Below, one piece after another: positions 1 to 64,000 of a stretch of 64,000 nt of DNA. The stretch comes from a virus. Every line of letters begins with the position of its first letter. Within the stretch, counting starts at the first letter, position 1. A program made the position numbers and the translations under genes. The notes beneath the pieces are model-generated. The model did no database searches. It was not told where the DNA came from and was given only the letters and a program-made list of their open reading frames with translations. Location: positions 2,657 to 66,656 of the IMG/VR virus record IMGVR_UViG_3300025383_000001. One strand, written 5' to 3'.

Positions 1-1
1 C

Positions 2-28436: not shown

Positions 28437-28445
28437 TATTTTTCC

Positions 28446-29426: not shown

Positions 29427-29435
29427 GGTAAATCC

Positions 29436-29813: not shown

Positions 29814-29828
29814 GTAATATCTCCTTTG

Positions 29829-45543: not shown

Positions 45544-47103
45544 TTACACGTTGTAGTAGCCCTTACCTCGGCTACTTCTAAATCCTCGAACCTCGTCTTC
45601 TTCATCAGAATCGAGTTGAATAAAACCACCTCGTCTAAATCGCAATAACGCCTGGCTCATTGAGTCAACTAAGTCATCGTGCTCACCTGATGGGAAACTT
45701 GCCACTTCTTCCACCAATTCTTCTGCCCAATGAGTATTAGGTACCCATACTCTACCACTAGCAAATATATCTGCTACTGCATTTAGCCTCGCAATTTTAT
45801 CATTACCTTTGCTCGGAACATACTCCTGAACGGGTATTCCCATAGCTCGTAACTCAAAAACCAGAGGAGCACCCGATGCTTTTGCTTCAACAATCAAGCA
45901 ATCTGGCTGCCACTCTTTATAGTCATCATACGCCTTTTGTTTTAATTCTGGAAACTCCATGCGTTGCTTGAACGAATTTAGCAAAATAATGTTAGGTACA
46001 GACAAGCCACGGGAGTTCTCCTGATAGAACACACCCCATGTCGTGCAAGCGCAATAGTCGGACCGCTGGGTTTTTAGGAAGGCCGTATCCCAAGACTGGA
46101 TAGTAAACTCACAAAACGGTGGGTCATCATGCTCCCATATTTGCCACCACTCACGCTTAATAATCGCCGATACATCTGATGTCGGCTGCTGCATATACTG
46201 AGCCATCCACTTGCCATTAGGCAATTCAGTACGCAGTGCTTCTAATTCAGTTAGCTTCCAGAACTGTGGCCATAGCGGGCCACCATCGGGCAAAATTGCA
46301 GGAAATTCAATGACTTCCCACTGCTCACCGCTTCTGTTTTGTGCTGCTTTGACTACTTGCCCGGTCAAATCTTTCTTTGACCAGCGTGTCATAACTATAA
46401 TAATTGCGCCACCTGGCTGTAGACGCTGACGTGGACCAGAGGTGTACCACTCGTATGTCTTATCGTAAATCTCAGGGTTGTTCTCGCTTAGGGCTGCTTC
46501 TTGTTCTGAGTGGGGGTCGTCAATAATGAGGATATCTGCGCCCTTACCCGTAACTGCGCCTCCCACACCGATAGCAAAATAGTCTCCCCCTTGGTTAGTT
46601 GCCCAGCGCCCAGCAGCTTTAGAGTCAGCCTGTAGTCCAACTCCTGGGAAGATAGACTTATAAACGTCGGAATCCACAAGATTACGGACTTTACGTCCAA
46701 AACCCACCGCCAACTCCGCCGTATGAGACGTCTGAATGACTTTCTTCTTAGGGAATTTTCCAAGGAACCAAGCAGGTAACAAGTAAGAAGCAAATTCAGA
46801 CTTAGTATGCCGAGGAGGCATATTAATAATAAGTCGTTTAATCTGTCCATTTGCTACCCTTTCAAATGCGTCTGCCATTTCGTTGTGATGTGCGCCATCA
46901 ATGAAGTCAGGCCACACCCTATGGACAAAATCCATGAATTTTTCCTGACAATTCTCCTTTTGTACTGCGTCTACTGTCGTATCTAGTTGATCTTTAAGGC
47001 TTCTTAGCTGCGCATCAGTCAAAGAATCAATATTATCTAGTAAATATTGTAGTTCTTGTTGTCCCAATTTGGGACTGTCGGCCTTACTCGTCTGTTTCTG
47101 CAT
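45544..47103 (-). CDS. terL: Terminase large subunit
   Basis: INMPPRHTKS Walker A variant, LIIDDP Walker B, MTRW, QSWDTA nuclease, HDDLVDS. Confidence 0.95.
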   Translation of the reverse strand: MQKQTSKADSPKLGQQELQYLLDNIDSLTDAQLRSLKDQLDTTVDAVQKENCQEKFMDFVHRVWPDFIDGAHHNEMADAFERVANGQIKRLIINMPPRHTKSEFASYLLPAWFLGKFPKKKVIQTSHTAELAVGFGRKVRNLVDSDVYKSIFPGVGLQADSKAAGRWATNQGGDYFAIGVGGAVTGKGADILIIDDPHSEQEAALSENNPEIYDKTYEWYTSGPRQRLQPGGAIIIVMTRWSKKDLTGQVVKAAQNRSGEQWEVIEFPAILPDGGPLWPQFWKLTELEALRTELPNGKWMAQYMQQPTSDVSAIIKREWWQIWEHDDPPFCEFTIQSWDTAFLKTQRSDYCACTTWGVFYQENSRGLSVPNIILLNSFKQRMEFPELKQKAYDDYKEWQPDCLIVEAKASGAPLVFELRAMGIPVQEYVPSKGNDKIARLNAVADIFASGRVWVPNTHWAEELVEEVASFPSGEHDDLVDSMSQALLRFRRGGFIQLDSDEEDEVRGFRSSRGKGYYNV

Positions 47104-47701
47104 CTTTTATCTCTACTGCTTCCACGTCTGTGACGTGTTTTAGCTGATCTAAACGAGATTCAGTCTTGGTTTTTGCGTTAATTGTGGTCGCCTGCATCAA
47201 TTGTGTGATGCGTTCTTTAATAGCGGCCTTTAATTCATCAGAAGTTTGGTGTGTAATTGTGATTTCTGAGCGTTCTGTGAACAAATCTGACGCTTTTCCG
47301 AGTAATTCGAGCGCTTTTAGTGCTGTTTTGTTATCTTCGTCCTGACTAATCTCCATTAGTCGGTTCATTACAATCGTGCGAACCTGTATTTTGTCCGCAA
47401 CAATTTGTTTTTCATACTCAGATATGTAACCACCTAGCTTATATGCTACGCCTGGATTAGTTAGAGCGTTCTCCGTGCTGTCCGCTTTCTTTGCTGTCTC
47501 TTTAACAGCGCCCATTTTTTCAAACATCTGCTTAGCAGCTTCGTCTTCTTCGGGTGTATAGGACATGTCTGCGCCGAGCTCAGCTAAAAGCAGTGCAGTA
47601 TTGCCAGCGACTTTTGCACGCTGCTCAAATGTCTGGCCTTTTTCTGGGTAGGCTAGATCGGGTACGGGTTTGTCGAGGTTTGGCTCGATTGGTATTTGCA
47701 T
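47084..47701 (-). CDS. Terminase small subunit (putative)
   Basis: Immediately upstream of TerL; LKALELLGK..LFTER helical motif. Confidence 0.65.
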   Translation of the reverse strand: MQIPIEPNLDKPVPDLAYPEKGQTFEQRAKVAGNTALLLAELGADMSYTPEEDEAAKQMFEKMGAVKETAKKADSTENALTNPGVAYKLGGYISEYEKQIVADKIQVRTIVMNRLMEISQDEDNKTALKALELLGKASDLFTERSEITITHQTSDELKAAIKERITQLMQATTINAKTKTESRLDQLKHVTDVEAVEIKDAETDE

Positions 47702-47811
47702 AGACCTGGTTTGGTAGGTTATATGCTGCCGACTATACCACAAAATGAAAATGGGGTACTACTAGAACCAATGTATGTGAAGCATTAAGAAACCTAGTTT
47801 CCCCCACCAAG

Positions 47812-47934
47812 TTATTTTACTTTGAAAAACTCTTTAATACTAGATAGCACTGACTGAACCCAGAACTCATTGATCTGCTGGTAATGCTTAGCCATCTGCT
47901 CTACTTTTTTGTATTGCTCTTCAAATGAAAACAT
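47812..47934 (-). CDS. 40-aa amphipathic peptide (phasin-like?); absent from the ORF track
   Basis: MFSFEEQYKKVEQMAKHYQQINEFWVQSVLSSIKEFFKVK; strong TAAGGAGA RBS. Confidence 0.65.
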   Translation of the reverse strand: MFSFEEQYKKVEQMAKHYQQINEFWVQSVLSSIKEFFKVK

Positions 47935-47952
47935 AATTTTCTCCTTAAGTTT

Positions 47953-47983
47953 TGCTGCAATGCAGCATAAAAGAATTCTATCA
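47953..47983 (-). promoter_or_regulatory. Extended -10 promoter with palindromic operator TGCTGC-N3-GCAGCA over the predicted start site
   Basis: Minus strand TG-A-TAGAAT (47983-47975); palindrome at 47953-47967. Confidence 0.55.
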
Positions 47984-48272
47984 CAAAAATATTATTGGGG
48001 GTATGGCACCAAATAAAAAAGGTATGGGGGGTGTTTTCTAGGATTAAATTAACAACATGTTGTCAGGAGATTAAGGCCCCCCTATGCACAAGAATAGATT
48101 GGGGTTAGTTGGTACTTATTGCCGGTTTTTAAATTTACATAATCTATTGTGCACATTATTGTGTATAGGTGTTGCCAGGGTCCTCTTTACCCTATCTTGG
48201 GGGCTGGGGGTAGGTAGGGTTCATATAACCAGCATTTAAAGCCCCTGGGAGCAGGTTTTATTAGACAGATAG

Positions 48273-48333
48273 TTTACTGCTGGGATTTGTCCTGGTGTAT
48301 AATGTACTTACCAGGTAGCAAGGTGTTACCTGG
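48273..48333 (+). promoter_or_regulatory. Promoter (TATAAT 48298-48303) followed by inverted repeat CCAGGTAGCA-AGG-TGTTACCTGG
   Basis: Perfect -10, weak -35 (TTTACT); 10-bp-arm palindrome right after the predicted +1. Confidence 0.5.
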
Positions 48334-48365
48334 ATTTAACCTAACCTTAAATGGGAGATTGTAAA

Positions 48366-48989
48366 ATGGAAAATACTTTCCAATTATCAGAAGTACAAAA
48401 CGACATGTTCACCAATATTGGCGTAACATTCGCAGTAGCTGAACTAGATGCTGATGCAGCACTGGAAGATTTTGCCAGGGCAGTAACAGTAAAGAATGAC
48501 CAGGGAGAGGATGTCGCATCCTATGATTTATGGGAATCAGGCATGGCAGTAGTGAAACAGGCTTATGCTGGTAAGAAAGGTGTAACCCTGGATTCAGATA
48601 CTATCAAGTCTATGGTTAAACGATTCTATCGTCGCCTGGAAGAGATGTATGGTTTAACTAAGCCAGCTAAGCCCAGCGCTGAAGGTCAGAAAAAAGCAGC
48701 GCAGCGCACAAAAGCCCAGGCAGCATTAGATGAACTCAAGTCTAAATCTTATGATGAACTCCAAGAAGAGATGGCTAATCTATTGGCTAAGCCCAGTACT
48801 GAAACCCTTGCTGCTGCTGGTAAGATCGCCAAGGCTATCAAGGCTAAAGAAAAGGATGATGTTAAAGACCGTATGACTGAGATCAAGGCTAAGCAAGCCG
48901 AAGTAGCTAAGCTAGCTAAACAATGCCTGGTGGAAGATATCCTGGAAGAATGCCTGGAGCTCTTAGCCGCTAACATCACTATTCAATAA
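48366..48989 (+). CDS. Early hypothetical protein, paralogue A
   Basis: GGGAGA RBS; shares KKAxQRxKA..SKSxxELxxEMANLLAxP with 49923-50501. Confidence 0.75.
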   Translation: MENTFQLSEVQNDMFTNIGVTFAVAELDADAALEDFARAVTVKNDQGEDVASYDLWESGMAVVKQAYAGKKGVTLDSDTIKSMVKRFYRRLEEMYGLTKPAKPSAEGQKKAAQRTKAQAALDELKSKSYDELQEEMANLLAKPSTETLAAAGKIAKAIKAKEKDDVKDRMTEIKAKQAEVAKLAKQCLVEDILEECLELLAANITIQ

Positions 48990-49035
48990 CCTATAACCAA
49001 GAAAGGATGCCCAGGGAAACCTGGGTATTTTAATT

Positions 49036-49272
49036 ATGCCTAGTTTAATTCTCAGTCCGGCCTATGGCCGGGATTATAAATCGAAGGCCGAAGTACTGTC
49101 GGCTTTCAATTCTGAAAAGGATTTTATTATCAATTCAGTAATGCCTGGTTATGCTGGTCTATATTGTAGTAAGCGGGATTTGTCCAGCTTTATTCGAGAT
49201 GGGTTTACTCATATTGAAATTAGATACCGCAAAATGACCATGTGCATTTTCCTGGATATACGCAAACTATAA
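49036..49272 (+). CDS. Small early protein
   Basis: LSPAYGRDYKSK..KDF..IRY pattern. Confidence 0.65.
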   Translation: MPSLILSPAYGRDYKSKAEVLSAFNSEKDFIINSVMPGYAGLYCSKRDLSSFIRDGFTHIEIRYRKMTMCIFLDIRKL

Positions 49273-49297
49273 CCAGGCAGCACCCAGTAGCACTAAG

Positions 49298-49326
49298 TCC
49301 CCAGGCATAGACCTGGGGATTTTTTT
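49298..49326 (+). terminator. Intrinsic terminator
   Basis: TCCCCAGG-CATAGA-CCTGGGGA-TTTTTTT. Confidence 0.8.
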
Positions 49327-49475
49327 GTCCCCAGTAAAAAATTAGGGAACTGGTTGTAAGCGACGCACTAGCCCGCAGGACAAAGTGTCACAATGCCACT
49401 ATGTCTTTCTCGGTTAAGCTCTGTAGCAGAGCTTAATATAATTTTATCGAGTTGTCAAGCATACCGAGTTTATAT

Positions 49476-49777
49476 TGTTCTAGCAATGTTCTACCTAATG
49501 TTCCTTGTAAGTCCTTGATTATAAAGGAATGTTCTATTGTTCCTAATGTTCCAAAAATTACTTTGCCCAAAATAATTTTACCGAGTGACAAAGACCCTCT
49601 ATGCAAGTGCAGATTGCACATGGTGAAATCAAATGAAAAAACCCCCTCGTAGTAAATTAAATATATAGAACAATAGAACAATATAAATAAATAACCCGCA
49701 AAGCCTTTATCTATAAGGCTTAGAGAATGTTCCATCACTTAGAACATTATAAGAACAATACCCTATTTTCTAGAACA
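49476..49777. repeat. Inverted array of TGTTC/GAACA units with an IHF consensus site (candidate pac/cos-like site or origin)
   Basis: Six TGTTC at 49476-49551, five GAACA plus one TGTTC at 49668-49777; TAAGTCCTTGATT (49508-49520) matches YAANNNNTTGATW; AT-rich and non-coding. Confidence 0.7.
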
Positions 49778-49791
49778 TATAGGACAAGTCC

Positions 49792-49820
49792 TTGACATTT
49801 CCCACCAAGTGTGCTATACT
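49792..49820 (+). promoter_or_regulatory. Strong early sigma70 promoter
   Basis: TTGACA, 17 bp, TATACT with TG extension. Confidence 0.88.
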
Positions 49821-49922
49821 GTATTTGTGAGTCGGAAATTGTTTTTGGTTCACATCAGGACAAAGTGGCAGAGTGACACTAAGTCCCAAACCCTAAACCT
49901 CACTCTATTGGAGATTGTTATT

Positions 49923-50501
49923 ATGGCAACAAAAACTGTAGTTAAAACGGCAGAAATGCTATCTCAATTTGACGAGCAAGAAAAGGCTCGTTTGGTATCT
50001 GCAACCCTTGCAATGGACTCTGGTGAAGACGAAGTTGCGGAAGCAATCGCAACGATTGCTCGTGAACTCGGTAGCAAACCTAGTTGGGCTCGCTATTCAA
50101 TGGGTCGCATTATCTTCGTTGAAACCCTCGAAGCACAGGGCAAAACCGAGGACGCTATCAAGTCCAAGTGGAAGCGGGTTTGTCGTGACTCTGCTATCAC
50201 TATTCCTGATAGTGATGACCCGCAAGCCAAGAAAAAGGCAGAGCAAAGGGCAAAGGCTCGTGCTGTATTTGAGAGCAAGTCCGACTCTGAACTAGAAGCG
50301 GAAATGGCAAACCTCTTGGCTCAACCTACTCTCAAGCGTATTGAGGAAGCCAAGAAACTTGGCAAGGAACTTGAGCAACGGCAGAAGGACGCAGGCAAGG
50401 ACATCAAAGCAGAACTTGCAGAACTCCGCAAGGCTATCCGTGACAAGGTCGCACTCATTGAGGACATTGAACAACTGCGTGAAATCCTCGACCAACTATA
50501 A
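49923..50501 (+). CDS. Early hypothetical protein, paralogue B
   Basis: GGAGA RBS, ATG 49923; paralogue of 48366-48989. Confidence 0.75.
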   Translation: MATKTVVKTAEMLSQFDEQEKARLVSATLAMDSGEDEVAEAIATIARELGSKPSWARYSMGRIIFVETLEAQGKTEDAIKSKWKRVCRDSAITIPDSDDPQAKKKAEQRAKARAVFESKSDSELEAEMANLLAQPTLKRIEEAKKLGKELEQRQKDAGKDIKAELAELRKAIRDKVALIEDIEQLREILDQL

Positions 50502-50522
50502 CTCAACCCGCAGTCCCTTTAT

Positions 50523-50551
50523 ACCCCGCCTAGTGCGGGGTTTTTTTATTT
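50523..50551 (+). terminator. Intrinsic terminator
   Basis: ACCCCGC-CTAGT-GCGGGGT-TTTTTT. Confidence 0.85.
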
Positions 50552-50552
50552 T

Positions 50553-50581
50553 CATGCCATCATGCCATCATGCCATCATGC
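50553..50581. repeat. Tandem repeat (CATGCCAT) x3.6
   Basis: Direct reading of the sequence. Confidence 0.9.
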
Positions 50582-50726
50582 GGACAAAGTGGCATCTTGA
50601 CACTATGTCTTTTATACCCCCATTATTTTTTATGGGAACTGGCTCGACGAGCGACGCACTAGGGAATTCGTTAGCATTGGGGACGAGATTTGGACTTTTT
50701 GGACTCCTGTAAGCTAGGACAAGTCC

Positions 50727-50755
50727 TTGACATTTACCACTAGATGTGGTATACT
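50727..50755 (+). promoter_or_regulatory. Strong early sigma70 promoter
   Basis: TTGACA, 17 bp, TATACT with TG extension; shares TAGGACAAGTCCTTGACATTT with the 49792 promoter. Confidence 0.88.
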
Positions 50756-50835
50756 AATAGAGTGGGAATTCGCCTACAACAACCAAACGACAAAGTGTCA
50801 CTATGCCACTATGTCCCAACCAAACGGAGTCAAGC

Positions 50836-50994
50836 ATGACAAGTAAAGAACAAGCCCAACTAACAGGCACGCTACAAAAACTGCTAACCCTTTGCCTCAA
50901 ATATCCGACCGCAGAAAACATTGCTCTCGCCAAAGAAGTAATGAAGACAATCAATGTAGTCGGTCTTCAATCCGCAGACAAAGTGGCAGAGTGA
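50836..50994 (+). CDS. Small early protein
   Basis: GGAG RBS after palindrome 4; stop codon lies inside palindrome 5. Confidence 0.6.
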   Translation: MTSKEQAQLTGTLQKLLTLCLKYPTAENIALAKEVMKTINVVGLQSADKVAE

Positions 50995-50998
50995 CACT

Positions 50999-51301
50999 AT
51001 GTCCAAACTCAAACTAACCTTCGAACCCGCAAGCCAAGTGCCACGCACCCACATCAGTCAGTCTTACTTGTGTGTTTCTCGTGTATCACATGATTGTGAT
51101 GTTCATGTAGAAGCAAGCCGAGCCGACTATCTCAAAGCAAACAATCTCCGCATGGTTTGCCACAAGTGTGGCGACGCACTAGCGACGCTAGAGTCCAAAC
51201 GCAAAGCAAGCATGGTTCAGATTCCGTATTCCAAAGGTGCGTATCAGTATATCCACAACCCCGACGAATTACGCTTTACTAACCCAAAGAGGACAACATG
51301 A
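50999..51301 (+). CDS. Early protein with Cys/His cluster
   Basis: CHKCG..PYSKGAYQYI..NPKRT; ATG lies inside palindrome 5. Confidence 0.6.
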   Translation: MSKLKLTFEPASQVPRTHISQSYLCVSRVSHDCDVHVEASRADYLKANNLRMVCHKCGDALATLESKRKASMVQIPYSKGAYQYIHNPDELRFTNPKRTT

Positions 51302-51465
51302 TGACCAAAGAAGAAGCCGACGCACTAATGCGTCTAACCGCCTACATGCTAGACGAGGATAAGTTAGCCGAATACAAGGGCTCTTTCCGTCAGCCAAACA
51401 ACGATGTAGAAATGCTCAACGATTACTTGTTGGGTCTTGATTCAACAGGGAGTTATCCAAAATGA
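51301..51465 (+). CDS. Small early protein (54 aa; absent from the ORF track)
   Basis: GAGGA RBS; overlapping start/stop codons on both sides. Confidence 0.5.
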   Translation: MTKEEADALMRLTAYMLDEDKLAEYKGSFRQPNNDVEMLNDYLLGLDSTGSYPK

Positions 51466-51686
51466 CCTACACATTCAAACCTCGCAGTCGCAAGAACCTA
51501 ATCGAGCAAGCCAATGCTCGTGCAATATCTACTCGAATCAAGCAGATGGCGACGCTTGAAGAAAAGCAGCAGCTTGTCGTTGAGACCAACCCTTTCTTGC
51601 ATATATTTGGCAAGCAACGCTTGGCTCAGGGTCATCTTGATTACAGCACTTGGCTTGACCGCATTTACATCGGGAGACGAAAGTGA
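51462..51686 (+). CDS. Small early protein
   Basis: GGGAG RBS; ATGA coupling. Confidence 0.55.
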   Translation: MTYTFKPRSRKNLIEQANARAISTRIKQMATLEEKQQLVVETNPFLHIFGKQRLAQGHLDYSTWLDRIYIGRRK

Positions 51687-51874
51687 AAGACTACCCGCCT
51701 TTCAGCGTCATGGACATAGCGATGGTCAAGGCTTGGAATTTCTGCATGGAATACGATTCGCACTCAGGTCGTGAAGTAGAACGCATGGGTGCAACCTACC
51801 TAAAAGAAGGCTATATCGAGGGCTTTCTTGCAGGCTTTTCACACAGGCTCGTAGGTGATGATGAAAATAGTTAA
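51683..51874 (+). CDS. Small early protein
   Basis: GGGAG RBS; GTGA coupling. Confidence 0.5.
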   Translation: MKDYPPFSVMDIAMVKAWNFCMEYDSHSGREVERMGATYLKEGYIEGFLAGFSHRLVGDDENS

Positions 51875-52037
51875 GTTATATCGTCATCCTGAAAAGCCTG
51901 AGTTCTATCTATTAGTCAAGCATGGTGAGATGGGACTGCTTGTGAATTACCCTATCGACAAACCTGATCGGAAACGACAGGCTCGGTGGTTTTCTTTAAA
52001 CGAAGTATATATAGATTGGATAAGGGAGTTTATATGA
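51861..52037 (+). CDS. Small early protein
   Basis: AGGT RBS; operon packing. Confidence 0.5.
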   Translation: MKIVKLYRHPEKPEFYLLVKHGEMGLLVNYPIDKPDRKRQARWFSLNEVYIDWIREFI

Positions 52038-52189
52038 TGTATTTATTCGGAGTAGTAATTCTTTTGACAACGATTATGGTTTCATCTGTTGCTTGGATAT
52101 GGGTAGACACACCCTTGCTTGCAATCGCTGGACTTGTCATATCGTCGTTTACCCTCGGCTTCATTCTAGGGGAGAACAGTAGTGACTGA
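52034..52189 (+). CDS. Small membrane protein with two TM helices
   Basis: AGGGAG RBS; hydrophobic. Confidence 0.55.
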   Translation: MMYLFGVVILLTTIMVSSVAWIWVDTPLLAIAGLVISSFTLGFILGENSSD

Positions 52190-52364
52190 GCATTACAAAG
52201 GGCAACGCATTGACGAATTGTTAGACATGATTGTCCGACTGCAGTATGCACTAGAAGAGAATAGAGATAGCGTCGACAGCGACGAGGTAGTTCGCCTCGT
52301 TGAATCAGAAGCTACCCTTGCAATTATGAAAGCAAAACTAACCGCACTACAAGGAGAAAAATGA
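52182..52364 (+). CDS. Small early protein
   Basis: GGGAG RBS, GTG start. Confidence 0.5.
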   Translation: MTEHYKGQRIDELLDMIVRLQYALEENRDSVDSDEVVRLVESEATLAIMKAKLTALQGEK

Positions 52365-52510
52365 ATGACAAGAAACTGAATGAACTCATGGCATTACTAA
52401 ACATGGCAAGCACTCGTGGGATTACCAAAGACCACATGAGATTGCTTGTTATTCAAGCACAAGAAATTGTGCGTCAACTAAAGAAGGAGAAGTTAAATGG
52501 CAAGACCTAG
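52361..52510 (+). CDS. Small early protein (49 aa; absent from the ORF track)
   Basis: AAGGAG RBS; ATGA coupling. Confidence 0.5.
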   Translation: MNDKKLNELMALLNMASTRGITKDHMRLLVIQAQEIVRQLKKEKLNGKT

Positions 52511-52790
52511 AAAAGCAAAACCCATGCCTGTCGAAGGCAACGCATTAGCACTAGACCTTAAAAACCCACAAAGTTTTGAAGGTGTCACCGACCCTCGCCA
52601 CGCAGTAGGCAGAACAAGCCGTAGTGCAAGCGAGGCATTCAAAGACGCAACCTATGCACAGTCAATGTGGAAATGCGAGTCTGATTTTGAATATGGAGTC
52701 CGCTTTGTCAGCGACATGGTGGTCGGTATGTTCACAGTCTTTATGTATTTACTAGTCCCTGTGTTATTAGCAGTTTGGTTATTTAGATAG
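52497..52790 (+). CDS. Small protein with C-terminal TM helix
   Basis: AAGGAG RBS; RSASEAF motif; stop codon overlaps palindrome 6. Confidence 0.6.
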   Translation: MARPRKAKPMPVEGNALALDLKNPQSFEGVTDPRHAVGRTSRSASEAFKDATYAQSMWKCESDFEYGVRFVSDMVVGMFTVFMYLLVPVLLAVWLFR

Positions 52791-52838
52791 ACAAAGTGTC
52801 ATTGTGACACTAAGTCCCTTTATTACGGAGTCAATTAA

Positions 52839-53540
52839 ATGATGAAACCTCAAGCATACGAAGCATTGCAAAAAGCAAAGGCACTATTTCGCCACCCAGC
52901 AGAAGTCGTGCAAGATGATATTCCATCTGAAGCAACACCAATCGAGCCTATTCGCAAACCACGAGTAGTCCTTTTACCACCCGATGCACCTAAGTTTGAC
53001 CAACACTCAATGAAAGAGGAACACAAAAAGATGGAACAAGCCAAACAAACCGAACTAGAAAACACCCTCGAAGAAATGGGGCTTACAACCCCAGCCATGA
53101 GAGAGCACAAAAAACAAATCGACAAGTATGCCGATATGTCTGTCACCAAAGCGTGTGAAGTTTGCCTTGCCAAAGGCATCAAGCAACCCGCAAATATTGC
53201 TAAAGAAACAGGCAAGAATGTAAATCAGATTTACACCGCCTTGTGGCATATCAAGCAACGCAAGAAAAAAGCCAAGGCTCAAGCCAAAGAAGCAAAGCGT
53301 TATGAGTATGACATGAGCAAGCCAAACCCCAAATTTGTAGCACCCAAGTCGTTGGACAAAGTGCAAGCCGATTGGGACAGAGAGCCGACTGCATGGGAAG
53401 ACGCACACAGGGTAGTCCTGCATGACAGGGAGTGGTATGAAGCCGAGATTGAAAAGCTAGCGACGGCTAACACCGACTTGCTTATCCAAATTCAAGAACT
53501 CAAAACCATCATCAAATACTTGGAAGGTAAATCCAAATGA
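52839..53540 (+). CDS. Early protein with possible HTH
   Basis: KQPANIAKETGKNVNQIYTALW resembles an HTH; C-terminal coiled coil. Confidence 0.55.
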   Translation: MMKPQAYEALQKAKALFRHPAEVVQDDIPSEATPIEPIRKPRVVLLPPDAPKFDQHSMKEEHKKMEQAKQTELENTLEEMGLTTPAMREHKKQIDKYADMSVTKACEVCLAKGIKQPANIAKETGKNVNQIYTALWHIKQRKKKAKAQAKEAKRYEYDMSKPNPKFVAPKSLDKVQADWDREPTAWEDAHRVVLHDREWYEAEIEKLATANTDLLIQIQELKTIIKYLEGKSK

Positions 53541-54487
53541 CATATACACATCAAGGGTATAACTGTGCCCGCATTCCAGCACTCGCAAACTATGCTCAAG
53601 CAAAAGAGCATTACCAATCCGTTGCACCCATTCGTGGGAGAAACCCCGAAGTCAGACCTCTTGGTAAGAACCGCCGCTTTACATGGTTCACTATCAACGA
53701 GAAGCACACGGTCTTGCCCGAATCTGATGACCCACTCGGTTCATTCGACATCGCCTATATTCTGCGTTGTTGGAACACCGACTTGATTACATTTCACAGT
53801 AATGGTGACATTGTTCTCAAGGATACTAGTTGGCATAGCCCGACGACGATGGGTTTCATGACCTTTTCATTGCAGGCTTTCGGTTCAATCATATCCAAGC
53901 GAGGCAAATGGTATTTCCAAAACAGCAAGGGGGAGAGTTTTCTTTTCCACAATGAAATGACTCTACGACAAAACGACGATGGGTTTGTCCGACCCAAAGA
54001 AGAAGTTGTAGAGAAGCGATACCGACTGTCACGCAAAGCGATGAACTCTATTCGCAAGAAATACAAGGGCTTTATCGAATACGGGAAGAACGCTTTGTCT
54101 ATCGACCCGACTGTCACAAGGCTTGAAGTTGCCGAGGCTAATCATGGCTTGTCATTTCAAGACACACATCTTGTGCCTTATTACTCGTGGAATAGCCCCA
54201 ACACCGACGGGTCTAACCGCACAAAGCTTTTTCAAGCATTGGATAGCTTTAATCAGTCTGGGGATTTAACCCTAGCTTACGAGTTGCTTTGCTATGTAGC
54301 ACAGTCGGTCGGTCGGTATAACTACCATAAGCAAATCATTGTGTGTGAACCTAATTGGTTTGTAAACAGAATGACCGAAGCAATGAAGTATCAATTCGCC
54401 AAAGAATTGTTTGTCGAAGAAACAGTAGAGAAGGGTGTCGTCTTTCATGATGACAATATTAAGTATGTAGCAAGAAGTGCGAAGTAA
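53537..54487 (+). CDS. Hypothetical early protein
   Basis: 316-aa ORF with ATGA coupling. Confidence 0.65.
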   Translation: MTYTHQGYNCARIPALANYAQAKEHYQSVAPIRGRNPEVRPLGKNRRFTWFTINEKHTVLPESDDPLGSFDIAYILRCWNTDLITFHSNGDIVLKDTSWHSPTTMGFMTFSLQAFGSIISKRGKWYFQNSKGESFLFHNEMTLRQNDDGFVRPKEEVVEKRYRLSRKAMNSIRKKYKGFIEYGKNALSIDPTVTRLEVAEANHGLSFQDTHLVPYYSWNSPNTDGSNRTKLFQALDSFNQSGDLTLAYELLCYVAQSVGRYNYHKQIIVCEPNWFVNRMTEAMKYQFAKELFVEETVEKGVVFHDDNIKYVARSAK

Positions 54488-54552
54488 GGGACAAAGTGTC
54501 ATGGTGACACTATGTCTTAGTTTTAAATCTAACTTAAATAAAGGAAACGGAA

Positions 54553-55647
54553 ATGTCGGAAGTATTATTAAATAAATTCTCTACCCTCAAAGAAGCAGAG
54601 GATATGATTGTGTCTTGTGGTGCTGGCGCAACCTTTCACCTTATGGGCGAACCAGGTGTAGGCAAAACCTCAATGTTCCGCAATATTGTTGCAAGAACTG
54701 GCTATAAAGGTATTTACATTGACGCACCAAACATCGAGCTTGGAGAATTGGGAATCCCAATCCCTAACCACGAAACCAAAACTACTCGCATTTATCCAAA
54801 CGAGCAATGGGGTTTCCACCTAAACGAGCCGCTTGTTATCTTCATCGACGAGTTCACCAAAGCCATGCAAGGTGTTAAGAATATGTTGCACCCAATGCTT
54901 AACGAGCCACGCATGGTTATGGGTATCCCATTGCACGAGAAAACGATAGTCGTAACGGCAGGTAATTACACTACCGACGGTGTAGGCGACACAATGATGA
55001 GCCATTCTCGCAATCGTATCTCTGTGGTCAATGTCAAGAAACCGCACGCAGGCTTTAATCCTGATGGCTCTATTGATGCTGACTCATGGGGTGAATGGGC
55101 AGTCAAGAATGATGTAGTCCCCGAAGTATTGGCATGGGTAAAGAATAACCCTCAAGCACTAGCCTCATACTTAGACCCATCACAGGCTGGCAACAAATAC
55201 ATCTTCAATCCAAAAGAAGCACAGAAGTCTTTTGTGTCGCCCCGCTCATTGGTTCGTGCAAGTAATATTCTCAAGCACAGAGCCGACTGCACAACGACAG
55301 CCATTACTTGTGCATTGGAAGGGACTATCGGAGCACCTGCGGCTAGGGATTTGATGGCATTCGTAGATGTGGCGGATAGCCTACCGACATGGGAAGCAAT
55401 CATCAAAGACCCACAAACCGCTACCGTGCCGACTAGTCCAGCAGCCTTGTGCTTACTTGCTTTTAGTGCAGTAAATAGAGTTGACCGCAACACCATCTCT
55501 AAATTCTTTGACTACCTCAAGCGGACTCCAAAAGAGTTGCAATCTGTCTTCTGCTTAACAGGCATGAAGAACGACGAGAAGAAAAAGACATTCTTAACCA
55601 GCCAAGCATTTACTGATTGGATGCGTGAGAACCAATACTTGTTCTAA
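54553..55647 (+). CDS. AAA+ ATPase (MoxR/CbbQ-like)
   Basis: GEPGVGKT Walker A, IFIDEF Walker B, TAGN, SRNR Arg finger, SPRS sensor. Confidence 0.85.
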   Translation: MSEVLLNKFSTLKEAEDMIVSCGAGATFHLMGEPGVGKTSMFRNIVARTGYKGIYIDAPNIELGELGIPIPNHETKTTRIYPNEQWGFHLNEPLVIFIDEFTKAMQGVKNMLHPMLNEPRMVMGIPLHEKTIVVTAGNYTTDGVGDTMMSHSRNRISVVNVKKPHAGFNPDGSIDADSWGEWAVKNDVVPEVLAWVKNNPQALASYLDPSQAGNKYIFNPKEAQKSFVSPRSLVRASNILKHRADCTTTAITCALEGTIGAPAARDLMAFVDVADSLPTWEAIIKDPQTATVPTSPAALCLLAFSAVNRVDRNTISKFFDYLKRTPKELQSVFCLTGMKNDEKKKTFLTSQAFTDWMRENQYLF

Positions 55648-55694
55648 ACGACAGAGTGTCATGGTGACACTTTGTCCTAACCTAAGGAAACTAT

Positions 55695-55979
55695 ATGAAA
55701 AAGAAAATGACAGACGAAATGTTTGAACAAGCAAATCGTCTTAAAAACGACATTGGCACTTTGCTAGAAGCGTCTGATGTAGAACTTGGATTGATACTGC
55801 CTGTGTTGATTGCAATCACTTGTGAAGCGGCGATTATCCAAGCTGAAATGAAACCGCACGAGTTTCTACGCTCAATCACAAATGGTGTATGTGCAATGAT
55901 TGACTTATCTCAGGAAGTTGAGGAAGAAGAAGATGATGAACCAACCGATGGAAGGAATAATATTCAATGGCTAAACTAA
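55695..55979 (+). CDS. Small acidic protein
   Basis: AAGGA RBS after palindrome 8; acidic C-terminus. Confidence 0.6.
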   Translation: MKKKMTDEMFEQANRLKNDIGTLLEASDVELGLILPVLIAITCEAAIIQAEMKPHEFLRSITNGVCAMIDLSQEVEEEEDDEPTDGRNNIQWLN

Positions 55980-57202
55980 CTGCCGAACAACGCATCGAAA
56001 GATGCCATGTGCAACTTATGAAGCACAGGAACTTTGCCCTGTTCTCAGGCTTATTTATGATTGGCAAGGTGACTGTTGCCGAAAACACCAATCATGGAAC
56101 TGCGGCGACTAATGGTGTTGATGTGACCTATGACAGAGCATTCGTCGATAGGCTCAACGATAAGCAACTAGCCTTTCTTATACTGCACGAGAATATGCAC
56201 AAGGCTTATCGACATCTTGTCGTATGGGAAAGCCTGCATCGCAAGAATAGGATGCTCGCAAATGCGGCGTGCGACTATGTCATAAATTTACAGATTCGTG
56301 ATTATGACCCTAGCGAATACGATACGCAATTCCCAACCGACGAGTTCGGCAATCAGATGGGTTTGATTGACGAGAAGTATCGTGGCATGGACTCTGCCCA
56401 AGTATTCAAGCTACTCGAAGAAGAACATGGCGGTGGTGGCGGTGGTGGCGGTGGTGATGGTGATGGAAAAATCTTTGTCGTAGGCGATGGCAACGGATTC
56501 GACCATCACGATTGGGAAGATGCACAAGAACTATCCGATACCGAAAAGGAAGAAATAGCCAAAGAGATTGAGTCTGCGTTGCGTCAGGGCTCTATCCTAG
56601 TCGGCAAGCTAGGCGGTAATGTTTCTCGTGAGATAGGCGACATGCTAACTCCCAAAGTAGATTGGAAAGAAGCGTTGCGTGATTTCGTCAAGTCATCCAC
56701 GCAAGGCAAGGAAAAGTCTACATGGAAGCGACTGCATAAACGCTATATCGGTATGGATATCGTGATGCCCTCACAATATTCTGAAAAGGTAGGCGGCATT
56801 GCTATCGGTATCGACACATCAGGCTCGATTGGTTCGGAAGAACTTAATCAATTCTTATCTGAAGTTAAGTCTATCTGCGAAGAAGTATCACCCGAACAGA
56901 TTGATTTGCTTTATTGGGATACTCATGTGGCTTCTAGAGAAACATATATGCAGAACGAGCTTGCAGGTCTGGAACAAAACACCAAGCCAGCAGGCGGTGG
57001 TGGGACTGACCCGACTTGTGTGCCTAAGTTTATGGCGAAGCATGATATCAAAGCCGAGTGCCTTATCTTTCTGACCGATGGATATATCGGGCGACAAAAC
57101 CCAAGCGACTATTCAAGCCTGACCATGCCTGTGTTGTGGTGCATCAAAGGCAATAGTCATTTTAACGAAGCCGTAGTTGGCAAAGTAGTTCATGTTGAAT
57201 AA
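55967..57202 (+). CDS. Metallopeptidase plus VWA domain protein (DUF2201-like)
   Basis: TAATNG, LHENMH (HExxH), NAACDYVIN; MIDAS DTSGS..GGGT..LTDG. Confidence 0.88.
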   Translation: MAKLTAEQRIERCHVQLMKHRNFALFSGLFMIGKVTVAENTNHGTAATNGVDVTYDRAFVDRLNDKQLAFLILHENMHKAYRHLVVWESLHRKNRMLANAACDYVINLQIRDYDPSEYDTQFPTDEFGNQMGLIDEKYRGMDSAQVFKLLEEEHGGGGGGGGGDGDGKIFVVGDGNGFDHHDWEDAQELSDTEKEEIAKEIESALRQGSILVGKLGGNVSREIGDMLTPKVDWKEALRDFVKSSTQGKEKSTWKRLHKRYIGMDIVMPSQYSEKVGGIAIGIDTSGSIGSEELNQFLSEVKSICEEVSPEQIDLLYWDTHVASRETYMQNELAGLEQNTKPAGGGGTDPTCVPKFMAKHDIKAECLIFLTDGYIGRQNPSDYSSLTMPVLWCIKGNSHFNEAVVGKVVHVE

Positions 57203-57212
57203 GGAGAAACAA

Positions 57213-57443
57213 ATGATTGAAACCAAAATGCCGAAAGGCAGAGCAAGAGATGGAAAGATAAACATCAGCCTCAACCCTGAGACTGTTGCTCAACTCGTCG
57301 TAGTAAAAGATGATATCGGAACTGCCCTGGGCTTTTCCGTATCGTATTCCCAAGCAATACAACACCTCATTAAGCATTTCAACCAACGGACAGAGTGTCA
57401 AGGTGACACTTTGTCCCAACCAAACGGAGAGTCAAATGAATAA
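57213..57443 (+). CDS. Possible ribbon-helix-helix protein
   Basis: KINISLNPETVAQL..SYSQAIQHLI; AAGGAG RBS; 3' end contains palindrome 9. Confidence 0.5.
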   Translation: MIETKMPKGRARDGKINISLNPETVAQLVVVKDDIGTALGFSVSYSQAIQHLIKHFNQRTECQGDTLSQPNGESNE

Positions 57444-58323
57444 CTCAATCAACATCTCATCATCAGCCATGCTAGTCGAACTAAGCATCCGTAGTTGGAC
57501 TGCACGCAAGTTGGACAAGCGTGTTTCTAGCGAAGTAGATACGGCTAAAGGGGCAAAGACCAGAGTGGTAAACGCAAACAAGAACCTACTCGCAGGCACA
57601 GGGGTTCTTGATACCATCATCAAGTATGCCGCCAATGCTCGTGCATGGCACAACGCACAAACTCTGCCGTGGTCTGACAACGGCTCTCGCTTGTTGCCTG
57701 TATCTAACTTTGTAAATTACAAAGAGCAACTCAATGTGCTTGAGCAGAACTACACCGCATTGGTCGGTAAGTTTATCACCGCATACCCAGACCTAGTTAG
57801 TGCGGCTGCGTTTCAGTTGGGCGACTTGTTCGATAGGTCAGAGTATCCCGACGCAAGCAAGATAGCGACGAAGTTTAGTTTCAATTACAGTTTCTTTCCT
57901 GTGCCGACTGCTGGCAGTTTTCTTCCCGACCTAATCGAAGAAGCCAAGCGTGAAGTGCAAGACAGTTGCAGTAAGGCTTACGACGAGCGTCTTAACAATG
58001 CAATGCGTGAAGCGTGGGATAGGTTGCATGATTGTCTTATTCGTATGAGTGAGCGACTAGCACCAGCAACACCAAGACCATTAAAGGATGGGACATTTAC
58101 TGATGTTCCTGTATTCCGTGACAGCCTTGTCGAGAATGCGTTAGAGTTAACAAGCCTCCTAACACATTTTAATCTTACGAACGACCACAATCTTGACCTT
58201 GCCAAGCAAGAGTTGTATCAGGCAATCAAGAACCACGATGCCGACTCGCTACGCAAAAACGCACAGGCTCGTGAAGTAGTCAAGGCAAAGGTAGATGCGA
58301 TTCTTAACAAGTTTAATTTCTAA
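57436..58323 (+). CDS. DUF3150-like protein
   Basis: WTARKLD..TLPW..RLLP..LGDLFDRSEYP pattern; usually accompanies AAA/VWA genes in phages. Confidence 0.6.
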   Translation: MNNSINISSSAMLVELSIRSWTARKLDKRVSSEVDTAKGAKTRVVNANKNLLAGTGVLDTIIKYAANARAWHNAQTLPWSDNGSRLLPVSNFVNYKEQLNVLEQNYTALVGKFITAYPDLVSAAAFQLGDLFDRSEYPDASKIATKFSFNYSFFPVPTAGSFLPDLIEEAKREVQDSCSKAYDERLNNAMREAWDRLHDCLIRMSERLAPATPRPLKDGTFTDVPVFRDSLVENALELTSLLTHFNLTNDHNLDLAKQELYQAIKNHDADSLRKNAQAREVVKAKVDAILNKFNF

Positions 58324-58332
58324 GGGGTAAGT

Positions 58333-59202
58333 ATGATAGCAATAGATAAATCAGTCTTAAAGAAAGAATACCGAGACGCAGAGGTTGACCAAATGCTGGT
58401 TAACTTTGCCGACTTGGTAGGCTTTGCCAAGCCATGTTGCAATTTCGTGTTAGACGATAACTGCGTGGACAGGGAATGGGTAGTCGACGAGCAGAACAAA
58501 AGTCTCAGCAAACACTATATCCGTAGGCTCAGGGTGTTTGAGAACGGCGAGGAGTTGGGCGACATAGGTGTGTCTAGACGCTACACAGGCGGTTCGTCTG
58601 ACATGGTCTACAAGGTTCGAAGTTTTCGTATTGTCAAAGAACGGGGCGACCGCAACGGAGTGACGGCTAAAGATATTAAGGTTGCTCTCCGCCACGCTAA
58701 AAAAGTATTTGTTTCTAGAGAATCAGCAGAACTTATAGCCCAAGTAAAAAATGCAGTAGACAGCCATGTTAATTATCTAGAAAGCCGAACATGCCATCAG
58801 TTGCAATGGACTATGGATAGTATGGCGACTAGTGTAGACCTTGCTTTGCACGCACAAGAAGCTAGGCGAAAGGGGGAGCAAGTAGTTTCCGTTCCTTTGA
58901 GTATGGTCAGGGTTAATAATAAAATAGAAGACCACGATGCGGCTTGCGATAGATACAGAGAAGCTAAGTCTTTGTTAGATGGTATACAAAATGGCAAAGG
59001 CTATGGTGTATTTTGTCGCATTGACAATAGCTTAGTTGTGTATAGCTATTCTACGAACACGGTTAAGCGATACGCTAGCTTTGAAGAATTGCCCGAACCC
59101 ATACAGAGTAAGTATGCAATGTTCAAGGTTCTCGACAAAGAAGAGCCACACGAAACAATCGGATGCAAGTTTGATGAGGGCTACTTTTATGTGGTAGAGT
59201 AG
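58333..59202 (+). CDS. Hypothetical protein
   Basis: 289-aa ORF with AAGGGG RBS. Confidence 0.65.
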   Translation: MIAIDKSVLKKEYRDAEVDQMLVNFADLVGFAKPCCNFVLDDNCVDREWVVDEQNKSLSKHYIRRLRVFENGEELGDIGVSRRYTGGSSDMVYKVRSFRIVKERGDRNGVTAKDIKVALRHAKKVFVSRESAELIAQVKNAVDSHVNYLESRTCHQLQWTMDSMATSVDLALHAQEARRKGEQVVSVPLSMVRVNNKIEDHDAACDRYREAKSLLDGIQNGKGYGVFCRIDNSLVVYSYSTNTVKRYASFEELPEPIQSKYAMFKVLDKEEPHETIGCKFDEGYFYVVE

Positions 59203-59328
59203 TCTCTGACTTCCGTGGGAATTTTTGATTGGGTTTGTAGAACCTAGTATGATGCGAAGCAAGCCACGGCTTATGCCGACAATCTCCCCCTAGCGTAAGT
59301 AGGATACGCAATCTACTTGACCTACACC

Positions 59329-59352
59329 AAGCCACCTTCGGGTGGCTTTTTT
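59329..59352 (+). terminator. Intrinsic terminator ending the early operon
   Basis: AAGCCACC-TTCG-GGTGGCTT-TTTT. Confidence 0.9.
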
Positions 59353-59412
59353 ATTGGGACAAAGTGTCACGATGACACTATGTCTTCGGGTTAACACCTA
59401 CAAAAAAACTTC

Positions 59413-59440
59413 TTGCATTTATCTGGGGAAGGACTATACT
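59413..59440 (+). promoter_or_regulatory. Sigma70-like promoter for the DNA metabolism operon
   Basis: TTGCAT, 16 bp, TATACT with an upstream A-tract. Confidence 0.55.
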
Positions 59441-59469
59441 GTGTCAATAATTATATTAAAGGATGCAGT

Positions 59470-59772
59470 ATGACCCCCGAATCAAAGGTCAAAGCTCAAG
59501 TAGTTAAGCTACTTAAAGAGAATGACATATATTACTTCTTTCCAGCCACGCACGGTTATGGTCGTTCGGGTGTGCCCGATATTGTCTGTTGCTACAATAG
59601 CCAGTTCCTAGCCATAGAATGCAAAGCAGGCAAGGGCAAAACAACTGCACTCCAAGAAAAAGAAATTAAAAAGATTCGTGATGCGGGTGGACATGCCTTT
59701 GTCATCAACGAGACCAACATTCACACACTAGCCTTGTATTTATTGGGGGGACAAGATGACGACCGATGCTAA
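59470..59772 (+). CDS. VRR-NUC domain nuclease (Holliday junction resolvase-like)
   Basis: TPESKVK..GVPDI..AIECKA..TALQ..GG. Confidence 0.88.
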   Translation: MTPESKVKAQVVKLLKENDIYYFFPATHGYGRSGVPDIVCCYNSQFLAIECKAGKGKTTALQEKEIKKIRDAGGHAFVINETNIHTLALYLLGGQDDDRC

Positions 59773-60049
59773 AAGTATGACCAGTTCCAAAGAAATGAAC
59801 AACGGTATTGAAATTATTTTAAAGCGGATGGAAACCCACCCCGAAGAATTTTATGGGGAAAGCAAGAAGTGGGCATTCATGTATAAAGAATATTTCCGTG
59901 ACATTATGACTGAGTCCGAGAAAGCCGCCATTCACGAGAAGCTGAAGGAAATCCGTCGTGCGGAATTAACTTATCAAGTAATGCGGACAATGACAGAAGA
60001 GCCTGAGTATGAATACAAATGGGTGGCTGACACTAGGGTTAAATACTAA
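59756..60049 (+). CDS. Hypothetical protein
   Basis: ILKRMETHPEEF motif; operon packing. Confidence 0.55.
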   Translation: MTTDAKSMTSSKEMNNGIEIILKRMETHPEEFYGESKKWAFMYKEYFRDIMTESEKAAIHEKLKEIRRAELTYQVMRTMTEEPEYEYKWVADTRVKY

Positions 60050-60471
60050 TGAGCCTAGTCAAAGCCTTCGAGCAAGAACTCTACGATAAATACGACGCAC
60101 CAGCAAAGGAAGCGGTTGCTCGCTACCTGATGGACACTTGCGGGTATGAAGTCACTCCCAATAACGACGCCTACGGCATCGACCTTTTGGTCAAAAAAGC
60201 TGGCTCAACGATTGGTGCAGTAGAAGTAGAAGTCCGCCAATGGAGTCCTATTTGTCCGTTCCCAACAATCCACGTGCCTAGCCGTAAGACTAAATTTTTT
60301 GGTGGTAACTCTTTGTTCTTTGCTTTAACAAAAGACATGAAGCACGCATATTGGATTGAGTCTAAAGAAATACTCAAGCATCCAATGAAAGAAGTTCGTA
60401 ATGTAAAAGTCGTAAGTGGTGAATTGTTTTACGATGTGCCGACTAACGAATTTAATTTTGTAGATTTATGA
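60049..60471 (+). CDS. PD-(D/E)XK-like nuclease-fold protein
   Basis: YGIDL..AVEVEVR. Confidence 0.55.
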   Translation: MSLVKAFEQELYDKYDAPAKEAVARYLMDTCGYEVTPNNDAYGIDLLVKKAGSTIGAVEVEVRQWSPICPFPTIHVPSRKTKFFGGNSLFFALTKDMKHAYWIESKEILKHPMKEVRNVKVVSGELFYDVPTNEFNFVDL

Positions 60472-63676: not shown

Positions 63677-64000
63677 ATTTGAAGAGGCGCTATTTTGAAA
63701 CTGTGCGTAGTTAACTTTTGGGAAGGAGCATTTGATGGAGACTTTTTTGATTTCTTTTTTCGTGCTTGCTTTCCTGACCTTAGTTATACTGATAACCCAT
63801 ACGATGCTGACCTTGTTGTTACCTCAGTATTTGGAAACACCTCTACCGACCCTCGTAAGACGCTTGCGTACATCGGAGAAAATATCAGACCTAATTTTGT
63901 TCATTACAGTCATTCTTTGGGGTTTGACTGGGATAGCTATGGCGGTAGGAATCATCGCTTGCCACTTTGGTATGCTCGCCTAGCATGGGATGGCTTTGAG

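Follow-up and report, generated by a model that had tools for sequence, protein, structure and literature searches.

The packaging site (pac) of phage P1 consists of a cluster of GATC-containing hexamers, and its cleavage depends on adenine methylation. Seven fixed sites within about 160 bp are read there by the phage's own pacase, and P1 also carries its own methylase. Local clusters of GATC are likewise found at oriC and the dnaA promoter (SeqA) and in the P1 plasmid origin; those of the oriC/SeqA type extend over about 250 bp, are non-coding, keep a conserved spacing, and show no switch of the word in close relatives. Other short words that are over-represented by selection are the host-specific, orientation-dependent Chi sequences and the uptake sequences of Neisseria and Haemophilus, which are 9–12 nt long, occur genome-wide in the bacterium and sit in hairpin stems with two copies per signal. 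As far as restriction words are concerned, phage genomics knows avoidance: restriction is described to act only via sites in the first-entering DNA, both for T5/BF23 (PMC10644984) and, with respect to the leading region, for Autographiviridae (PMC12455610). The abstracts retrieved in our literature searches describe no enrichment of restriction words in phage DNA. In this study, we analyzed a window of 64,000 nt, i.e., bases 2657–66656 of the 66,656-bp IMG/VR record IMGVR_UViG_3300025383_000001, which represents a freshwater tailed phage genome of about 66.5 kb, and identified an island densely packed with the word CCWGG. It is the reverse of avoidance, namely positive selection for an avoided word, directly beside the avoided zone.

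An earlier note on this DNA had put 20 CCWGG sites into about 1,140 bp and about three into the following 14.7 kb. Both figures proved to be exact: 20 sites lie within 1142 nt, between the same coordinates as in that note (Table 1) and compared with an expectation of 1.46 (Poisson P = 1.9e-16), and only three more follow between 49317 and 64000 (at 54652, 57326, and 62691). The signal is purely local, since over the full window CCWGG is no more frequent than expected, with 84 sites compared with 92.2 +/- 8.1 in dinucleotide shuffles (85 in the whole record). Eight of the 20 sites read CCAGG and 12 read CCTGG, and their spacings of 9–210 nt are patternless.

The island constitutes one transcription unit, consisting of a promoter, a 5' hairpin, a first gene (geneA), a hairpin with a GAAA loop, a second gene (geneB), and a terminator. 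Genes make up 75% of it, eight sites falling into geneA and two into geneB, the latter number not significantly above chance. The remaining ten lie in 386 nt of non-coding sequence, five of them upstream, two in the spacer between both genes, and three after geneB. All three hairpin stems had been claimed to be built from the word as well, and folding confirmed that CCAGG pairs with CCTGG in each of them. The promoter is putative: a consensus promoter scan did not call it at 48270..48304, and its assignment rests on reading the sequence, in which the stretch GTGTATAATG is kept in three related loci (L017, L031, and L096).

For a comparison with all other words, every 4-6-mer was merged with its reverse complement and scanned over the whole 66,656-bp record with a scan window of 1142 nt. 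The CCAGG/CCTGG class ranked sixth. All five classes above it were versions of one CCACC/GGTGG coding repeat at about 28.2 kb, located in glycine-rich tail genes, and apart from this coding repeat the CCWGG island is the strongest k-mer cluster of the genome. The repeat belongs to three adjacent glycine-rich (Gly_rich_2) genes at 27150–30779, which form the top k-mer cluster of the genome with 37 GGTGG/CCACC in 1142 nt.

Codon-shuffled controls, which had been proposed together with such a scan, left the enrichment in place. Resampling of geneA with the codon usage of the genome yielded 0.37–0.41 CCWGG, none of 5000 and none of 3000 resamples reaching the eight present, and permutation of the gene's own synonymous codons yielded a mean of 1.6, again with 0/5000 at eight. 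By synonymous recoding, geneA could hold 14 sites at most. CTG is the rarest leucine codon in the genome (88/1338), yet it accounts for 6 of the 19 leucine codons in geneA. For geneB, two sites compared with 0.78 are not significant (75/5000 and 422/5000 resamples reach two). The suggestion of the earlier note that the enrichment is selected thus outlasts codon as well as dinucleotide controls.

Related loci were collected in two ways. A search with TerL resulted in 80 IMG/VR loci (75–88% identity), among which the maximum of CCWGG in any 1142 nt was six. Single-protein scans of viral and metagenome contigs with geneA gave no match, but alignment-based scans did find orthologues, in 16 viral and 5 metagenome loci. 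These 21 units were each counted from 230 nt before to 1000 nt after the geneA start, with expected numbers of 0.9 CCWGG and 2.5 GCTGG/CCAGC per unit from the pooled background of the family (796 kb). The closest geneA homologues (73–88% identity) are known as proteins only, so that their islands lie outside of this DNA comparison. Some contigs bear two designations (L081 = L017, L082 = L031, L087 = L005, L091 = L001), and L092 and L093 are identical in geneA.

As a check, it had been asked if orthologous loci show enrichment of this word or of a different one, and both cases were found. Three of the 21 units are saturated with CCWGG, namely L096 (18 sites), L089 (14), and L105 (19), and 16 of the 21 harbor 10–20 GCTGG/CCAGC together with 0–2 CCWGG. 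L082 and L090 are weakly enriched, with nine each. A second palindrome, GGCC, is also saturated in L089 (10 in geneA compared with 1.8) and in L105 (18 in the unit), two loci that are 94% identical. Resampling with genome codon usage supported these enrichments in geneA of L096 (CCWGG 12 vs. 0.93), of L089 (CCWGG 5 vs. 0.57, and likewise the GGCC count given above), and of the GCTGG type (L083 8 vs. 1.3; L083, L086, L091, and L095 in the range of 6–8 vs. 1.3–1.6), with 0/3000 resamples reaching the observed number in all cases. The same resampling revealed no significant enrichment in L082. In 16 of 16 units both orientations of the word were about equally frequent, e.g., 9 and 11 in L083 or 10 and 6 in L087. 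At the neighboring positions -1 and +1, no base was preferred in 52 CCWGG sites; GCTGG is preferentially flanked by G on either side. An enrichment of AGCT(A) noticed in L005 was discarded, as it looks like a matter of Ala/Lys codon composition.

Further words occur in more distant loci. L080, which has other genes at this place, contains 25 CCSGG; 16 of them fall within the initial 1.1 kb of the early operon, and the 6 kb thereafter are free of them. In L050, a first early gene similar to geneA (281 aa, 8163–9008, minus strand) is packed with GGCGG, mostly on the sense strand, and looks GC-rich by eye; the 21.5-kb locus contains no CCWGG. Planktothrix phage Pag-Yong1 (OL906435.1, L110), whose TerL is 46% identical, has a GC content of 69% and displays neither island nor desert. 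One of its first early genes (6611–6925) is annotated as SAM lyase, and its 25 kb contain no GTAC.

Comparison of the orthologous units revealed how the words replace each other. The three hairpins are conserved, with CCCAGC/GCTGGG stems in L005, L001, L017, and L031 and CCCAGG/CCTGGG stems in the focal phage and L096. The leader hairpin is identical in L096, and its equivalents in relatives use other stem letters; the intergenic GAAA hairpin has a GGCTGG/CCAGCC stem in L005, L001, and L031 instead, and at the terminator position relatives have CCCAGC/GCTGGG stems. Within geneA, the focal codons ATC-CTG-GAA correspond to ATT-CTA-GAG in L017 and L031, TGC-CTG-GAG to TGT-TTA-GAG or TGC-TTA-GAG in the same loci, GCC-AGG-GCA to GCT-AGG-GCT in L017 and to GCC-CGT-GC in L005 and L001, and CGC-CTG-GAA to CGG-CTG-GAA in L005 and L001. 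Out of about 35 alignment columns with CCWGG in the focal phage, L096, or L089, one is common to all three and four more to the focal phage and L096, and therefore each lineage accumulated its own sites. In the geneA tree, the three CCWGG lineages fall into one clade (support 95/88) with L081 and L082, which are both without CCWGG, so that at least two changes of state are needed; the unit has switched its word at least twice among close relatives. A decay of CCWGG to CTWGG by deamination was considered for L081 and L082 and rejected: two positions would fit, and the whole table is without such a pattern.

Since site positions are mostly unshared and synonymous swaps create sites, it is the copy number of a lineage-specific word that is selected, not the position of the sites. 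Enrichment and selection at synonymous sites are evident here, and the DNA of the unit, from promoter and hairpins to coding sequence and terminator, has been driven by positive selection toward a maximum number of copies of one 5-bp word in either orientation. In geneA, 8 of 14 possible sites come near to saturation, directly beside a region from which this word has been purged.

The early region that follows the island is a strict restriction-site desert with regard to seven word classes (GGCC, CCGG, GGWCC, GATC, ACGT, GTAC, and GCWGC). In a scan with 250-nt steps, the lowest count in 11 kb was 6, compared with a genome median of 162. The edge of the desert is sharp at the side of the island; the far one fades through 64000 to about genome base 3000. 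For the 17.7-kb early region, observed and expected numbers were 0/40 for CCGG, 1/40 for GGCC, 0/22.6 for GGWCC, 0/17.5 for CCSGG, 10/66 for GATC, 9/66 for ACGT, 12/66 for GTAC, and 4/22.6 for CCWGG, while CTAG (67/66), CATG, and TGCA are normal there and GGCC amounts to 99/107 elsewhere in the genome. Specific palindromes far below both composition and Markov expectations in one region only are thus a property of the flanking desert and not of the island. CGCG is missing from the 66.5-kb genome in both compartments (about 147 expected from composition). For TCGA, depletion is stronger among the late genes, at 0.28 of expectation, and milder in the early desert, at 0.70, and hence the late and early halves carry different avoidance profiles.

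The desert is shared by two related genomes, G001 (CCWGG type) and G002 (GCTGG type), and that of G002 is also poor in GCTGG/CCAGC (4 in 10 kb). In the flanks of the relatives, the own word reaches 0.92 sites/kb on the early side vs. 2.01 on the late side in GCTGG types and 0.00 vs. 1.04 in CCWGG types. Moreover, 12 of the 80 TerL-related loci contain no CCWGG at all in 110,416 nt (199 expected), indicating that a CCWGG-specific nuclease is a real selective force in this phage group. The desert fits the published rule on first-entering DNA: avoidance of the same kind extends over the 11–18 kb after the island, which may be the first to enter.

Regarding the role of the array, we tentatively favor, at a probability clearly short of even, that the island is a cis-acting bait for host site-specific restriction-modification (R-M) enzymes. 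The array would serve as a decoy or sink for a host endonuclease and/or methyltransferase with the specificity of the word. It would be placed in a dispensable, fast-evolving leader beside the site-free early region, which must presumably be expressed before phage counter-defences work, and the word would change as the R-M repertoire of the host changes. That a host R-M enzyme reads the word and that the phage benefits from occupying or diverting this enzyme are both steps that we infer. Twenty cleavable sites would be tolerable only if the island is expendable and terminal, if the enzyme is stoichiometric, or if the reader is a methyltransferase. A more specific version, which we regard as rather doubtful, would have the leader beside the genome end as a sacrificial 'lightning rod' that carries the current word or words of the host R-M systems and draws or exhausts the enzyme during early expression.

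The evidence on the reader leans toward a host R-M-type enzyme because the word is an exact canonical 5-mer, because the same words are purged next door, and because two palindromes share one island. An exact CCWGG without flank preference has the look of a Dcm/EcoRII-type target, and two host enzymes explain the two palindromes in the L089/L105 island more easily than one phage protein. No C5 or N4/N6 methyltransferase (PF00145, PF01555) was found in the focal genome (G000), G001, or G002. Furthermore, TerS does not co-vary with the word: among the five cleanly extracted TerS sequences, to which this comparison refers, the one of L089 (CCWGG plus GGCC type) shares 85.6% identity with TerS of GCTGG-type L087 and 64.1% with the focal TerS. 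The island tolerates change, as geneB has no match in three lineages, geneA has a paralogue, and geneA diverges faster than its flanks; between L089 and L087, geneA is 68% identical at the nucleotide level and the flanks are 80–83% identical. From another kind of system, class 2 DISARM, methylation of CCWGG is described in a preprint.

Several points weigh against a bait. The bins with related contigs (9 loci) name unrelated phyla and indicate neither a host nor a matching R-M system. A bait with 20 sites should harm the phage if cleavage there is lethal, and a benefit needs extra assumptions. In addition, clustered sites would activate an EcoRII-like enzyme instead of inhibiting it. The focal phage shows no avoidance of CCWGG in its late region (61 vs. 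60.4 expected), and the present host may have no effective CCWGG nuclease. GCTGG/CCAGC is non-palindromic, and we know of no well-known enzyme for it. Finally, depletion of GCTGG in the early region is weaker in the focal genome (about 2-fold), and the same applies to GGCGG in L050. If the array does meet host R-M enzymes, it would be a new kind of counter-defence or host-sensing element, and the island word of an uncultured phage would provide a sequence-only read-out of the R-M specificity of its host. Since the sites are synonymous or lie in stems that can be compensated, the array is directly testable by recoding.

Next in rank after the bait, but unlikely, is an array of the genome end, in which the word, perhaps methylated, would load or time packaging beside the terminase cut site, similar to a cosB- or pacL-like side. 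The location invites this reading. The island opens the rightward, early-strand genes as their first transcription unit, where early and late genes diverge; it begins 430 nt from the TerS start, and only 16 nt separate its end from a nearly invariant 24-nt non-coding element. This element is exact in 16 of the 21 related loci and has one mismatch in three more, with flanking proteins only about 50–60% identical; of the two loci without it, L094 stops 11 nt past geneA and thus short of its position. The element may be a site for the terminase, for a genome end, or for an origin, and together with the layout it lends plausibility to a genome end or a packaging site next to the island. The desert also starts sharply at this border, as expected of a fixed DNA end there, and the arrangement of rightward early genes and leftward terminase genes resembles fixed-end phages such as N4. 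A Logan unitig covering 46795–50546 (TerS, island, and paralogue) revealed 1.55x the depth of the next unitig in two metagenome runs (64.6 vs. 41.5 and 48 vs. 30.9), which could be due to sequence that several strains have in common, terminal redundancy, or a packaging gradient. In a hand tally of the listed match positions, the contig ends upstream of TerL displayed a smooth decay and no pile-up.

As in P1, a cluster of a methyltransferase-type palindrome lies beside packaging genes. Unlike pac of P1, the island spreads 20 sites over 1142 nt, its positions turn over, its word varies, and no phage methylase was found; neither fixed site positions nor a co-variation of the packaging protein with the word, both typical of P1-type pac, were present. 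Known pac and cos sites consist of a few fixed sites, and a packaging array would also have to account for two unrelated words together in L089 and L105. The record itself does not place the ends: it is a circular assembly, classified by IMG/VR as having direct terminal repeats, and its 127-nt end overlap lies in an open reading frame and resembles an assembler overlap. Were the island nevertheless a genome-end or packaging mark, it would be a new type of cis signal, defined by word density and not by fixed sites.

Quite unlikely, in our estimation, is a methylation-sensing switch, by which host methylation would mark parental versus new DNA and control expression of the unit or firing of the iteron region. 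CCWGG, GGCC, and CCSGG are typical targets of cytosine methyltransferases, and with no phage methyltransferase found the mark would be made by, and dependent on, the host. One site touches the -10 region (48291–48295), two are located in the leader hairpin, and a region rich in iterons and palindromes follows directly. There, two 30-nt imperfect palindromes (49376–49405 and 49856–49885) enclose about ten AATGTTC/GAACATT iterons, which adjoin the island without any copy inside it, and clusters of GGAACA/AACATT occur at the same place in many relatives. A local palindrome enrichment of at least ten-fold beside iterons or an origin-like region recalls the GATC clusters mentioned above; the island departs from them by its length, its coding content, its unconserved spacing, and its word switch. 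Most sites lie in coding sequence, distant from promoter or iterons, their positions are not conserved, and a density kept up over 1.1 kb suggests mass action rather than a switch, so that the evidence from these comparisons leans against a precise switch of the P1 pac kind.

The array might also be bound by a protein outside of R-M, from host or phage, and serve for silencing, as a roadblock, or to stop ejection as in T5, which we consider improbable. It is dense, free of orientation, and located where the site-free early region meets the rest of the genome, and in T5/BF23 the equivalent border is described as a repeat-rich region with DnaA boxes (PMC10644984). The T5 injection-stop region and the island thus resemble each other as repeat-dense segments that border a site-free early region. 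According to the same source, however, long direct and inverted repeats form a non-coding region in T5; such a block is not what we found, since the island is for the most part coding and its unit is a 5-bp word within two genes. The folds of geneA and geneB are confident yet unmatched (AF2 models with pLDDT 89 and 86, respectively), and the geneA protein is rich in lysine and alanine. As a reader of the array, however, geneA does not simply track the word, since the CCWGG types form a clade with the CCWGG-free L081 and L082. Such an array would furthermore leave the purge of the same word next door and in whole related loci unexplained, and the double word in L089 and L105 would require two specificities.

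Very improbable is a Chi-like array taming an exonuclease of the RecBCD/AddAB type that comes from a nearby DNA end. GCTGG opens the Chi word of E. coli, Chi words are short and differ between hosts, and the island may adjoin a DNA end. The orientation requirement of Chi largely fails, as an orientation bias was found in none of 16 units, CCWGG and GGCC are palindromic, and one would not expect a protective word to be removed from the early region next door. The uptake sequences of Neisseria and Haemophilus share with the island a selected word in hairpin stems; the island with its 5-bp word is confined to 1.1 kb of a phage.

A function at the level of RNA, in which pairing words would form a structured or sponge-like leader mRNA, has hardly any probability left. 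All three hairpins are built from the word, and CCAGG pairs with CCUGG. The mRNA of geneA, however, is no more folded than shuffles (z = -0.47, with 6/20 shuffles folding equally well; z = -1.84 for the site-free paralogue), and a signal of this kind would be strand specific, with the word here present on both strands. Of the five sites that precede the leader hairpin (48175–48311), three or more lie before the -10 hexamer and therefore outside of the transcript. In a CsrB-like sponge RNA the word would be expected in loops; here it is found in stems and on both strands. No Rfam family matched the island, the single sub-threshold match being located outside of it.

A by-product without function, arising from codon usage, recent import, or biased (very-short-patch) repair toward CCWGG, is already largely refuted and of equally negligible probability: E. 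coli does repair T:G mismatches toward CCWGG and the island evolves fast, yet within-gene permutation keeps codon usage and still never reached eight sites, island and genome have the same GC content, orthologues differ by in-place synonymous swaps, a repair bias would be genome-wide in spite of the three sites in the next 14.7 kb, and other lineages enrich other words, including a non-palindrome.

Table 1. Location of the CCWGG island and of neighboring features in the 64,000-nt window.
Feature	Coordinates	Strand	Remarks
TerL	45544..47103	-	52–58% identity to annotated TerL; Terminase_6C
TerS	47084..47743	-	assigned by position and homology to annotated relatives; first gene of the leftward late operon
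CCWGG island	48175..49316		
Putative promoter of the island unit	48270..48304	+	-10 TATAAT at 48298–48303; CCTGG directly upstream; weak -35
5' leader hairpin	48311..48333	+	-14.7 kcal/mol, z = -2.6; CCWGG in both arms
geneA	48366..48989	+	207 aa; alternative ATG at 48351; all-helical; function not assigned
Intergenic GAAA-loop hairpin	49004..49031	+	stem CCCAGG/CCTGGG; -18.5 kcal/mol, z = -5.5
geneB	49036..49272	+	78 aa; alpha/beta protein; function not assigned
Strict restriction-site desert, early region	49278..60271		5 sites of the seven word classes
Intrinsic terminator	49295..49329	+	stem CCCCAGG/CCTGGGG, then T run; hairpin 49295–49322, -18.9 kcal/mol
24-nt non-coding element	49345..49368	+	border of island and desert
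Regulatory/origin-like region	49376..49886		iterons bracketed by two imperfect palindromes
Sigma-70 promoter of the next unit	49792..49820	+	TTGACA, 17 nt, TATACT, with TG; 11/12 consensus matches
geneA paralogue	49926..50501	+	listed open reading frame 49809–50501; 41% identity over 127 aa, E = 2e-15; no CCWGG

Searches with geneA revealed 71 homologous proteins, all of them unnamed or generically named. Neither a Pfam, PHROG, or PDB match nor an Atlas lead was obtained for geneA (Foldseek E >= 0.35; VIA Z <= 7.2), geneB gave no match to a family, a solved structure, or the Atlas (Foldseek E >= 0.35; VIA Z <= 3.3), and in the annotated phage collection no close DNA or protein relative of the island or of geneA was found. 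The paralogue of geneA is located 900 nt downstream. For geneB, tblastn gave no match in L081, L082, and L096 (the contig of L094 stops before the position of geneB); since L096 is of the CCWGG type, geneB is not needed for a CCWGG island. In contig data from four freshwater metagenome runs, neither molecule ends nor variants within the island were detected.

On either side of the junction, the genome is organized in two divergent blocks. Leftward late genes extend from 47934 down to 9238 and encode TerS, TerL, capsid, an SU10-type adaptor, glycine-rich fibre proteins, and a 2074-aa virion-type protein; a large protein beside the terminase is portal-sized and portal-placed and gave no family match. 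Rightward genes extend from 48351 through the record end and round to window position 9158. Their products comprise an AAA ATPase, a DUF2201 protein, a VRR-NUC/Hjc-like nuclease, a family A DNA polymerase, and a PD-(D/E)XK exonuclease, followed by a radical-SAM/glycosyltransferase block, an SNF2 helicase, and a DUF927 protein. The block of radical-SAM/SPASM and glycosyltransferase-like genes measures about 5.5 kb (63695–64000, the 2656 nt preceding the window, and window positions 1–2237); the focal genome and CCWGG-type G001 both carry it, and it is cleanly absent from GCTGG-type G002. The phage was found in 13 freshwater metagenome runs, with no RNA run among those listed. Between the TerS gene and the island, runs of G and runs of C were noticed at 47990–48230, and a palindrome in which at least six G follow six C occurs in L017 (about 8150–8180), L031 (about 4850–4880), and L096 (about 2490–2530).

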